Assembly: GCA_965228735.1 (NCBI GenBank)
Contig: OZ245838.1
Coordinates: 2,432,001 to 2,496,000, forward strand
Direction of reading: 5' to 3'
Source of the DNA: Planctomycetota bacterium
Lineage (GTDB): Bacteria; Planctomycetota; UBA1135; UBA2386
Length of the DNA: 64,000 bases
The position numbers and the translations under genes are program-made. Of this stretch, positions 971-5,267 are shown in pieces. The notes under the pieces were generated by a model. That model was not told where the DNA came from. It ran no database searches and worked only from the letters and a program-made list of their open reading frames with translations. Within the stretch, counting starts at the first letter, position 1, and each line of letters starts with the position of its first letter.

Positions 971-2302
971 TCACCGCTCGTCGAGGATGACCTTGTCGCG
1001 CTTGCGGAACACGATGCGGATCGGTACCTCGGTCACGCCGAACGCGTCACGCAGCGTCTGCTCGAGATAGCGCGCGTACTGCCCCTTGAAGACCTTGGGC
1101 TCGTTCACGAACACGAGCACGGACAGCGGCCCGGTGCCGATCTGGGTCCCGTAGAACAGCTTGGGGAAGCCGCCGCTCGAAGGCACGAGCTTCTCGCGCG
1201 CCTTCTGCAGCACCTCGTTGAGCTTGGCCGTCGGGATCTTGATCTGCGACTGCTCCCGCAGCTCGAACATGAGCTCGAGCGTCTGCACGACGTTGATGCC
1301 GTCCTTCGCCGACATGAACGACACGGGCGCGTGGTCGAGCCCGGGCAGCTGCTGCTTGATGTAGGCGTCCCACTTCTCGAGGTCGACCTCGGGCGCGAGG
1401 TCGATCTTGTTGCCGACGAGGATGACCGGCTTGTTGTGCTGCACGCAGTAGGCCGACAGCGTCTTGTCGACCTGGCTGATCGGCTCGCGCACGTCGAACA
1501 TGTGGATGCACACCCCCGCGCGGCGAATGCTCTCGTTGCTGCGCGAGTGCGCGAAGATCTCGATCGCGTGTTCGACGCTCTTCTTCTTGCGCACGCCCGC
1601 GGTGTCGATCGCCAGGAGCGTGCGGCCGTCGAGGCTGAAGACGACATCGACGGCGTCGCGCGTCGTGCCCGCGATCTCGGAGACGATCACGCGTTCCTCG
1701 CCCGCGAGTTGGTTGATCAGCGTCGACTTGCCCGAGTTGCGCTTGCCGATGACCGCGAACTGCAGCGTGTCGGCCGGCAGGTCGATGTCGGCATGGATGT
1801 CCTCCTCGGGGAGCTCCGCGAGGATGCGCTGCAGCAGGTCCGTGCAGCCGAACCCCTCCTTGGCGCTGATCGCGAGCGGCTCGCCGAAGCCGAGGCGCTG
1901 CCAGACGTGGACCTCGAGCTCTTCGTTCCACGACTCGATCTTGTTGGCGATGAGCACGACCTTCTTGTCGAGCTTGCGCAGCCGCTGCGCGACCATGTCG
2001 TCGCCGGGCACGCGCCCCTCCTTGCCGTCGACGACGAACAGCACGAGGTCGGCCGTCTCGATCGCGACCGCGATCTGGGTCTCGACGTGCTCCTTGAGCT
2101 GGGCCTCGTCGACGAGTCCGAGTCCGCCGGTGTCCGTGAGCTCGAACGAGCGGCCCTCGTGCGTCACCGTGGCCGAGATCCGGTCGCGGGTGACGCCCGC
2201 GGTCGGCTCGACGATGGACACGCGGCGGCCGACGAGCCGGTTGAGCAGGCTGGATTTGCCGACGTTGGGGCGGCCGACGATGCTGACGCGGGGAATGGGC
2301 AC
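971..2302 (-). CDS. der: Ribosome biogenesis GTPase Der (EngA)
   Basis: Two tandem G domains (GRPNVGKS/DTGG/NKIE and GKRNSGKS/DTAG/NKID) plus a KH-like C-terminus. GTG start chosen at 2302. Confidence 0.95.
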   Translation of the reverse strand: MPIPRVSIVGRPNVGKSSLLNRLVGRRVSIVEPTAGVTRDRISATVTHEGRSFELTDTGGLGLVDEAQLKEHVETQIAVAIETADLVLFVVDGKEGRVPGDDMVAQRLRKLDKKVVLIANKIESWNEELEVHVWQRLGFGEPLAISAKEGFGCTDLLQRILAELPEEDIHADIDLPADTLQFAVIGKRNSGKSTLINQLAGEERVIVSEIAGTTRDAVDVVFSLDGRTLLAIDTAGVRKKKSVEHAIEIFAHSRSNESIRRAGVCIHMFDVREPISQVDKTLSAYCVQHNKPVILVGNKIDLAPEVDLEKWDAYIKQQLPGLDHAPVSFMSAKDGINVVQTLELMFELREQSQIKIPTAKLNEVLQKAREKLVPSSGGFPKLFYGTQIGTGPLSVLVFVNEPKVFKGQYARYLEQTLRDAFGVTEVPIRIVFRKRDKVILDER

Positions 2303-2416
2303 GGGATTGGGGGCGAGCACGATACGGCGGGATCGCGGCGACCGCCAGTTGCCCGTTCTTTCCCGGGTGGGAACGTCGTCGCTAACGGTCGCGAGCGCCC
2401 GGACGTCAGACGCGCG

Positions 2417-3150: not shown

Positions 3151-3183
3151 GTGGCGGTACCGAACCCGTTTCGAATCCGCCAC
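3151..3183 (+). repeat. REP-like imperfect palindrome; intact copy of the intron target site
   Basis: GTGGCGGTACCGAACCCGTTTCGAATCCGCCAC, with a GTGGCGG/CCGCCAC stem. An inverted copy is split by the intron (3235-3250 plus 5243-5258). Confidence 0.8.
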
Positions 3184-3250
3184 CGCCAGCTCGGCGCCAA
3201 GGCCAATCGGAACGGCGATTGCGTGGGCGGCGCCGTGGCGGATTCGAAAC

Positions 3251-5242
3251 GCCGGGTGGCCCTGGGGGTCTCCCCCCAGGGCTCCCACAGATCCGGACGT
3301 GCGCGGCTAACGCATCCGGCTCGTCAGCGACAAGGGCTCGCTGCGTAGACCGACCGGGTCAGCCGGGGCGGAGGAAGCGGGTATGCACGCAGCAGTTGCT
3401 CGAAGCGGGCCCACGACATGTAGGCCGCCCGCGAGCGCCGGCTCAGCCACCGATGCCAGATGCGACGGGCCTCGTACCATACGCGACGTAACGCAGCAGA
3501 GTTGCCGGTCACGCCGAAGTAGAGGTAGTGCCCCCGTAGCTTCGAGCACAGGGTGGAGTACTGGACGCGGACCTTGTCGTGCCGATTGCGACGGCACCAA
3601 TCCCGTAGCCCAGTCAGGGTACGGGTCACGACGTGTCGTGTGGTGCGCCGCTGCACGGTCCATCGGCCGCGCCGGGAGCGTGACCAGTGATGGGTGAAGC
3701 CCAGGAAGTCGAAAGTGCCGCTCCCCGCCGCGCCGTCTTCGGGCGGTTGGAAGCGGACTAACCGGGTCTTGTCCGGATGCAGTGTGAGGCCGAAGCGCCC
3801 GAGCCTTTGGGCCAGGATCGACGACATCGCACGTGCATCGGCTTCGACGGCAAACAGGATCACGAAGTCGTCCGCATAGCGGACCAACTCCGCGCGACCG
3901 GCAAGCCTCGGCTTGACTTCCTCGACAAACCAACGGTCCAGCACTGCGTGCAAATAGATGTTCGCCAGCAGCGGCGAAATCACGCCTCCTTGTGGGGTGC
4001 CTTTGCGAGAGCGATGCAGCGCACCGTCCTCCTGCACCCCCGCCTTCAGCCACTTGTCGATCAGTCGACGGAACACTCCGTCGCGCACCCGCTGGTCGAG
4101 GATCGCTCGCAGATGGGTCGGCTCCAGGTTGTCGAAGAAACCTTGGATGTCGACTTCCAATAGCCAGCCGCCACCCATCGACATCGCATGCTTCCAAAGC
4201 GATTCCAGTGCCGTGTGCGGCGAGCGACCGGGACGGAAGCCGTGCGAGCAGTCCAAGAAGTCCTGCTCATATACCGCCTCCATCACTTGCGTCACCGCCC
4301 GCTGCAAGACCTTGTCCTCCAGCGTCGGCACTCCGATTGGACGCGTGCCACCCTTCCCTTTCGGGATGTGCACGCGCCGGACCGGTGGTGCGCGATAGCG
4401 CCCTGACTTCGCGCGTTCGTGCAGGTCCGCGAGGTTGCCCTCGAGATCCTGCTCGTAGTCGCGAGCCGTGACGCCGTCGACACCAGGAGCTTTGGACTTC
4501 TGCGTGCGGCGATACGCCTCCCGCAGAAGCGCGATGTCCATGTGGTGTGCCAGTGTGGTCAGGACCAGGTCTGGTCGCTGCCTCGCCAGCTCCGCTACCC
4601 GCCGGAGTTTCGTGGAGACCTGCTCGGAGCCCGTCGTCTCCGTGGTCGGTCCGTCCAGCGGTTCCTTGTCGCCGGTGACGCCCTTCCCTCCGCCGGGTCC
4701 CCGTGGGGCGGGTTCCCCGGACTCTTTGGTACTATGACGCACTCCGACTCCCTCGTTGGCGTCCCGCGTCGCTTCGTTTCCTTCGCTCGGCGGTACCGGC
4801 CGTGTGTCCGGATTCCTTGACGGCACCGACGCGGACACGACGTCGCGGCCCTGGAGAGTTGGTTTCCGGGCCCCAGCCGGAGTTGACGATCGGACCAATC
4901 GAGGGGATCCCAGGTTCCTGGGGAGTCCGATGGATGCGTGCGGTCGTTCTCAGGACCCCGGAGAGACTTCCGGGCCAAGCCGGTTGCGGCCCTTCCATGT
5001 TGCCTTCCGATGAACCCACCACGTCGGCTCTCTCGCTGTCGGTACTTTCGGGGCTCAGTCGCGCCGCCCACATCCTCGCTGTCTACGCTTCGCAGCGGCG
5101 GTTACCCGGTCGCCACGCAAGACTCGCTTCCGGCTGGTGGCTAGCCTTCGCCGGGCGGGTTTCGTCACCCGCGGGACTCCAATACGGGGTTCTCATTCCT
5201 GTCAGGTCATGATTTCTCCCGTCCAGGCTTCGCCTGGCGCAA
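3251..5242 (-). mobile_element. Complete group II intron, 1992 nt
   Basis: 5' end TTGCGCCAGG at 5242. Domain V GAGCCGGATGCG...CACGTCCGGATC at 3322-3290. Domain VI hairpin with a bulged A, ending ACCCGGC at 3251. EBS1 (5017-5012) and EBS2 (5045-5040) are complementary to the 5' exon. Contains an RT ORF. Confidence 0.93.
3324..4658 (-). CDS. ltrA: Group II intron reverse transcriptase/maturase without endonuclease domain; start uncertain
   Basis: APGVDG, IPKGKGGTRPIGVP, SHGFRPGRS, GTPQGGVISPLLANIYL, RYADD and FDFLGF, followed by a maturase X domain. The stop abuts domain V. Confidence 0.93.
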   Translation of the reverse strand: MDGPTTETTGSEQVSTKLRRVAELARQRPDLVLTTLAHHMDIALLREAYRRTQKSKAPGVDGVTARDYEQDLEGNLADLHERAKSGRYRAPPVRRVHIPKGKGGTRPIGVPTLEDKVLQRAVTQVMEAVYEQDFLDCSHGFRPGRSPHTALESLWKHAMSMGGGWLLEVDIQGFFDNLEPTHLRAILDQRVRDGVFRRLIDKWLKAGVQEDGALHRSRKGTPQGGVISPLLANIYLHAVLDRWFVEEVKPRLAGRAELVRYADDFVILFAVEADARAMSSILAQRLGRFGLTLHPDKTRLVRFQPPEDGAAGSGTFDFLGFTHHWSRSRRGRWTVQRRTTRHVVTRTLTGLRDWCRRNRHDKVRVQYSTLCSKLRGHYLYFGVTGNSAALRRVWYEARRIWHRWLSRRSRAAYMSWARFEQLLRAYPLPPPRLTRSVYAASPCR

Positions 5243-5267
5243 GGGTTCCGTACCGCCATGCCCGCCA

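Follow-up and report, generated by a model that had tools for sequence, protein, structure and literature searches.

Bacterial group II introns are believed to survive by occupying repeated sites where they do no harm. The window (the whole stretch of 64,000 nucleotides analysed here) holds a group II intron in one arm of an inverted repeat, with the partner arm empty beside it, and raises the question of how harmless such a site is. The earlier note interpreted the locus as a harmless homing site provided by a multicopy intergenic repeat. We address this interpretation through the intron, the repeat family and the state of the empty landing sites across the genome.

The intron and its class

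The intron spans 3251-5242 on the minus strand (1992 nt), starts with UUGCG and ends with GGC. It is one of ten genomic copies, all of which share identical ends. The previously proposed excision of 3251-5242 does rejoin the target, as its removal in silico restores a 33-bp arm. An empty allele exists as well: in the conspecific run X8, a 37,054-nt contig joins 3250 to 5243 and skips exactly 1992 nt. The insertion is precise, with EBS/IBS pairing and without target duplication. Across four public runs mapped to the locus, intron depth was ~4 to 12x the flank depth, a rough sign that the intron copy number varies among runs.

Ribozyme domain I (4945-5163, minus strand) matches the Rfam model group-II-D1D4-6 (RF02005) at 123.5 bits, and in the same search the intron stayed below the gathering score of RF00029. 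Domain V (3290-3322, minus strand), with an AGC triad and a 5-nt loop, and domain VI with the 3' end (3251-3286, minus strand; bulged A at 3257) were read by eye. A single-sequence fold of domain I was uninformative (z -0.5) and did not locate alpha', which in class E introns lies at a stem-loop tip in DId3. Domain IV encodes an RT/maturase with a YADD motif (3324-4643, minus strand), which scores 344.7 bits with TIGR04416 (cut-off 300). RVT_1 is the sole Pfam match of the protein, and it has no endonuclease domain. Its start is a likely position only, because ACC-ACG stands where the ATG is usual (minus strand, 4641-4646), and the frame is open up to 4898. The ribosome site is also weakened there, and several relatives likewise lack the ATG at the usual position. 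A non-AUG start could possibly keep the activity of the intron protein low. No sigma-70 promoter match was found near the intron.

The intron protein is 44-45% identical to that of a disrupted intron on pRmeGR4b, which matches the same Rfam model and is described in parts of PMC5894124 as the class E intron S.me.I4. By closeness of protein and RNA to this one reference, we file the intron under class E (IIE). Class F/g3 was rejected, with 34% protein identity to Ni.ha.I1, which matches Rfam D1D4-4. A quick protein tree of 54 rows gave no close sister of the intron protein.

Target recognition was assessed by covariation among 67 distinct related introns with resolved ends (78 were resolved in all). 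EBS1 (5017-5012, minus strand) pairs with exon positions -1 to -6 in 76-94% of them, in agreement with the previously proposed EBS1/IBS1 pairing. EBS3 (C at 4953, minus strand) pairs with the first base of the 3' exon in 88%. The proposed six-base EBS2/IBS2 pairing (EBS2 at 5040-5045, minus strand) holds for its four central pairs (5044-5041 with -9 to -12), which covary in 61-72% of the 67 introns, but not for the outer two, which show no covariation in this set. The first (5242) and penultimate (3252) intron bases covary too: G..A in 46, U..G in 20 and G..G in one of the 67, with U..G in the copy studied.

The landing site in the window

On the minus strand, the 5' half of the occupied arm lies at 5243-5259 and includes IBS1 (5243-5248), an unpaired base (5249) and IBS2 (5250-5255). 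The 3' half lies at 3235-3250, with IBS3 at 3250. Sequence comparison identifies the plus-strand arm at 3151-3183 as a perfect landing site that is empty and lies on the leading-strand template. This intact inverted copy had been noticed before. It is not a separate neighbour, however: the two arms form one 117-bp doublet, joined through a 51-bp spacer (3184-3234) of fixed length and variable sequence across copies. The restored arm and its partner differ solely at -7, between IBS2 and IBS1, as noted earlier. The two arms belong to one element, so each doublet carries a built-in control that the earlier note had missed.

The placement of the insertion in a hairpin loop between convergent genes was also correct: the arm is predicted to fold into a hairpin (z -4.4), and its 5-nt loop contains the insertion point. 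A gene with a dioxygenase-like domain (PF00775; 2417-3145, plus strand) converges on the doublet, and an ABC permease gene (PF02653; 5268-6209, minus strand) reads into the intron in sense. An EngA/Der-type double GTPase gene (971-2350, minus strand) lies upstream of the dioxygenase-like gene.

The target is a REPIN-like repeat family

The target is indeed a multicopy intergenic repeat and not a local duplication of a hairpin. The genome (7.19 Mb, one contig) contains 134 arms at 75 places, arranged as 59 inverted doublets and 16 singles. Arms are 33 bp long, and 53 of the 59 doublets have an 84-bp period. Doublets are predicted to form hairpins (z -7.5 and -6.8), and their length-constrained spacers have an average identity of 39%. 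All arms are extragenic according to gene calls made in this analysis, with 33 doublets in convergent, 21 in tandem and five in divergent contexts. A MITE of a DDE insertion sequence was rejected as the nature of the repeat, given target-site duplications of ≥3 nt in 0/59 doublets.

A RAYT-like gene beside such repeats, which had been suggested as a check, exists. It is the single HUH-Y1 gene of the genome (6715991-6717019, one copy), with sister repeats and a half arm of the target family on its flanks. The protein was found with NCBIfam NF047646, below the cut-off of this model; Pfam Y1_Tnp gave no RAYT match in the genome, and homologues of the gene are named RayT by JGI. Homologues occur in 31 of 60 relatives. 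In several of these they are flanked by repeats with a TAC-S-GWACC core preceded by A or G. The shared core begins with GTAC (TAC in relatives), not with the GTAG or GTGG tetranucleotide of REPIN hairpin feet, and the outermost base of the arm varies. A search of 60 relatives did not recover the target repeat. The target family matches the REPIN description given in parts of PMC3116915, and we infer that its doublets are mobilised by the RAYT.

The RAYT-like protein (locus L001:1492-2520) has a long C-terminal helix-turn-helix region, and its gene adjoins a Rho-like gene. This long-tailed family is REP-flanked across the host order, in contrast to the long-tailed TnpA-Y1 subclasses described as not REP-associated in parts of PMC6006769. 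Some single or half arms of the target family are followed immediately by a sister repeat doublet, which gives the impression of an insertion into the arm (e.g., genome positions 5701274, 5848565, 6118565 and 6788823).

Occupancy follows the replication strand

The ten intron copies comprise eight intact ones, which differ at a single base, and two broken by IS elements. We take these elements to be IS3- and IS256-like. All ten copies sit in the repeat, at the same base of the 33-bp arm, and none in unrelated sequence. With the origin at 4.57 Mb and the terminus at 1.25 Mb, both from GC skew alone, nine of the ten lie in the arm whose sense strand serves as lagging-strand template (p=0.021), hereafter the attackable arm. 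The orientation bias anticipated for an endonuclease-less intron is thus borne out. A lagging-template bias is known for RmInt1 and RmInt2 and, in moderate form, for class E (parts of PMC1802570, PMC4615759 and PMC8919778). Transcription may also play a part in occupancy, since the upstream gene reads in the same sense as the intron in nine of the ten cases. The one copy outside the attackable arm is in sense with its flanking genes.

Several loci deserve separate mention. An occupied doublet at genome positions 339693-344507 has a 14-bp spacer, lies between divergent genes and holds an intron broken by two IS elements. Site 6550593 has an IS-broken copy in the studied genome and an intact copy in locus L159. 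Only two of 53 doublets (genome positions 1603913 and 6838624) have identical spacers; both are occupied, and gene conversion from the intron across the spacer is possible at these two sites. The genome encodes two other RTs, a single-copy group II-type protein (L239:1467-3140) and a 643-aa RT beside an integrase gene (L240:1443-3374).

Empty landing sites are damaged mostly on one strand

Occupancy goes with an intact landing site. The intron is present in 0/36 doublets with a damaged attackable arm versus 9/23 with a perfect one (p=6.5e-5). A change at -12 alone characterizes 36 sites in attackable orientation (25 of them in sister repeats), and all are empty. Homing is not saturated, as the attackable arm is perfect and yet free of the intron in 14 doublets.

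The two arms of empty doublets differ strongly in damage. Among the 49 empty doublets, the landing site was damaged in the attackable arm only in 32, in the other arm only in two, in both in four and in neither in 11 (p=7e-8). Loss of the landing site is thus far commoner in attackable arms than in their partners, a pattern suggestive of some cost of insertion, to the host or to the repeat. The multicopy site of the earlier note stands, and its harmlessness is doubtful. The asymmetry of damage is as directly observed as the target, the copy numbers, the strand bias and the insertion polymorphism at the site in the window.

Most changes fall on two neighbouring positions. Position -12 was changed in 17/67 attackable versus 3/67 other arms and position -11 in 20/67 versus 2/67, so that 37 of the 43 damaged attackable arms are altered at one or the other of these two adjacent bases. 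The excess also reaches -10, -9 and IBS1: with -12 and -11 intact, other paired positions were changed in 6/21 empty attackable arms versus 2/61 (p=0.003). Variable positions outside the pairing (+2, +6, +8, -7, -16 and -17) are symmetric between the two arm sets. Positions -12 and -11 were never both changed (0/67; p=0.0014), and mismatches in the core were under-dispersed, with none in 24, one in 40 and two or more in three attackable arms (p=8e-6). Both patterns point to a single change per arm. All six substitution types occur, and most changes are transversions.

The split in the covarying core was 17:0 and 15:1 in the two replichores. By gene context it was 15:0 for convergent, 7:0 for co-oriented, 8:0 for counter-oriented and 2:1 for divergent doublets. 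The direction of transcription is not supported as the cause of the asymmetry, given that the split holds in three gene contexts.

Related repeats without the intron do not share the pattern. Sister repeats in the same genome (110 and 109 arms, in overlapping sets) had no asymmetry at the matching positions. The intron-free relative G013 is a one-contig genome with RAYT homologues and no RT match. Its matching bases were changed in 1/42 versus 2/62 arms, again without asymmetry; these 104 arms were read from 70 fetched stretches (a pattern search listed 113), and replichores were set from 40 stretches of 20 kb. A stray asymmetry occurred at +15 in G013 (7/42 versus 0/62; p=0.0013), and a reverse one at -13. 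The control repeats are not built like the target family, and they may be of more recent origin.

Among the genomes of related introns examined, none combined a REP-homing intron with a sufficient number of arms to serve as a replicate. Related introns have multicopy targets in G062 (15 matches), G032 (19) and G065 (27, at the ends of a ~1-kb element), weakly so in G063 (4) and G064 (5), and not in G061 (2); these targets were too few or too fragmented for a strand test. Most related introns have non-palindromic targets unrelated to the one studied here. Related introns at loci L013, L026, L031, L237 and L046 include cases in a perfect palindrome, directly behind another intron and at the ends of a ~1-kb element. 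One target in this set is presumably an attC-like site.

Probable escape from homing and alternative explanations

Selection for escape from intron homing probably explains the changes in attackable arms of this one genome. The fuller scenario is an arms race of nested mobile elements, which we favour with a little less confidence. Here, a REPIN family spread by a RAYT would resist a group II intron through landing-site mutations, only in the lagging-template arm and mainly at two bases outside the RAYT motif. By analogy with RmInt1 and RmInt2, the intron RNP would reverse-splice into the single-stranded lagging template through EBS1, EBS2 and EBS3 pairing, and the nascent lagging strand would prime reverse transcription. 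A single IBS mismatch might then suffice to block homing. Insertion could burden the host with 2 kb of sequence, lost repeat function and recombination between identical copies, or it could end the replication of the repeat itself by the RAYT. Escape alleles would accumulate at -12 and -11 because these bases belong to the EBS2 core yet probably lie just outside the TAC-S-GWACC motif kept by the RAYT-linked repeats of this lineage.

Evidence from RmInt introns is mixed. In parts of PMC4075523, 86% of events had all five EBS2 pairs, indicating nearly full EBS2 pairing. RmInt2, however, is described in parts of PMC4615759 as homing despite IBS2 mismatches, which counts against escape. The present expansion also looks young, with copies differing at one base, beside at least 36 independent changes. 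The greater age of damaged doublets predicted by the simplest survivor model was not seen: other differences averaged 1.75 in doublets with a damaged arm versus 1.77 and 1.3 in perfect ones (p=0.38). Clustering at two bases (37/43) would also suit the scar of a site-specific nick.

Such a scar could be left by the RAYT itself. The enzyme would nick or insert the lagging-template arm beside -12 and -11, repair or target-derived bases would leave one change, and the intron would fill the arms that stayed intact. Enzymes of the Y1 type in the IS200/IS605 family act on the lagging template (parts of PMC6006769), and the changes cluster, in mutually exclusive fashion, just 5' of the conserved motif. 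Yet repeats with the same core are almost invariant at these bases on both strands, in this genome as in G013, and the excess of changes extends to -10, -9 and IBS1. Target-derived bases should moreover often produce double changes, and none were seen. We consider a RAYT scar unlikely.

An earlier invader with an overlapping target, either an older wave of similar introns or a REP-targeting IS, could have selected the changes before the present intron arrived. The near-identity of intron copies in four runs would fit a late arrival. Extinction and recolonisation are described for group II introns (parts of PMC3522654), and IS elements target REPs (parts of PMC1525189). Against such a succession, neither a diverged intron remnant was found in the genome nor any other large insert in the arms, and the damaged positions match the covarying EBS pairs of the present intron. 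A previous invader seems as improbable as a RAYT scar.

An origin without selection, through a mutation hot spot specific to one strand, a site of methylation or restriction, or a weaker constraint on one of the arms, is very unlikely. Positions -12 to -7 do form a six-base palindrome, and other hot positions exist in the arms (e.g., +6). However, where the partner arm begins, the identical six bases occur on the same strand without being a target, and they were changed in only 2/67; the mirror half of the palindrome was changed in 8/67, versus 37/67 for the landing site. The variety of substitutions and the limit of one change per arm also speak against such an origin, and a sequencing artefact would not be expected to flip with the replichore. 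Avoidance of a restriction site is not supported, as the palindrome is not under-represented in the genome (553 seen, 434 expected).

If selection for escape from homing is the correct explanation, the damaged arms record directly, in the genome, how targets escape from retrohoming. They would also prove, from natural variation, that homing of class E introns requires EBS2. Sites regarded as safe would then not be free, targets would evolve resistance and the sequence of REPINs would be shaped by an enemy. The alleles found in nature provide a ready mutant series for EBS2 in class E homing and for mapping the needs of the RAYT.

Relation to known systems

Class E introns such as S.me.I4 and Cl.be.I2 share with the studied intron the Rfam D1D4-6 type, the lack of an En domain and, as read by eye, the 5-nt domain V loop (parts of PMC5894124 and PMC3753933). 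The studied intron differs in having U and G, not G and A, at the first and penultimate bases and in its REP target. The same sources describe the class E EBS2 as not required for splicing in vitro, and its role in homing is there only a proposal. The damage pattern supports a role of EBS2 in class E homing.

RmInt1 in ISRm2011-2 similarly homes to a multicopy site, fills the lagging template first and needs nearly full EBS2/IBS2 pairing (parts of PMC1802570 and PMC4075523). According to parts of PMC1802570, the wild-type target is retained in every empty ISRm2011-2 copy of strain 1021, whereas most empty attackable arms here have lost it. A close published analogue is the class D intron RmInt2 in the inverted repeats of ISRm17 in Sinorhizobium meliloti GR4 (parts of PMC4615759). 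It is also endonuclease-less, with identical copies, a target present twice in opposite orientation and a lagging-template bias. The intron studied here is of class E by our assignment, and its target is a non-coding REP doublet and not the ends of an IS. Strand-specific decay of empty targets is not reported for RmInt2 in the consulted parts of PMC4615759.

The target family resembles REPINs and RAYT systems in its inverted REP doublets, fixed spacer length, extragenic location, lack of target duplication and single repeat-flanked HUH-Y1 gene (parts of PMC3116915, 10.1101/119735 and PMC6006769). It departs from them in a GTAC/TAC instead of a GTAG core and in a long-tailed transposase that scores below the NF047646 cut-off. 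REP-targeting IS elements (ISPpu9/10, ISPsy8 and IS1397; parts of PMC1525189) likewise break REPs at a fixed point, in contrast to the RNA-guided retrohoming proposed here, with 10/10 copies at one base. A table in the same source places two of nine P. putida group II introns beside REPs. Homing into REPs alone is thus a variant of known behaviour, considering these introns and the RmInt2 analogue.

It is debated whether saturation of sites or selection sets the limit for group II introns (parts of PMC3522654). Strand-specific decay of empty homing sites was not found in the literature searched, which did not extend to subscription journals. What is new here is the strand-specific damage to landing sites in the attackable arms of empty doublets. 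Every target has a mirror-image control 84 bp away, and a single genome is therefore enough to read what the intron does to its targets. The same paired-arm test is applicable wherever a genome has inverted repeats that contain an intron or IS.
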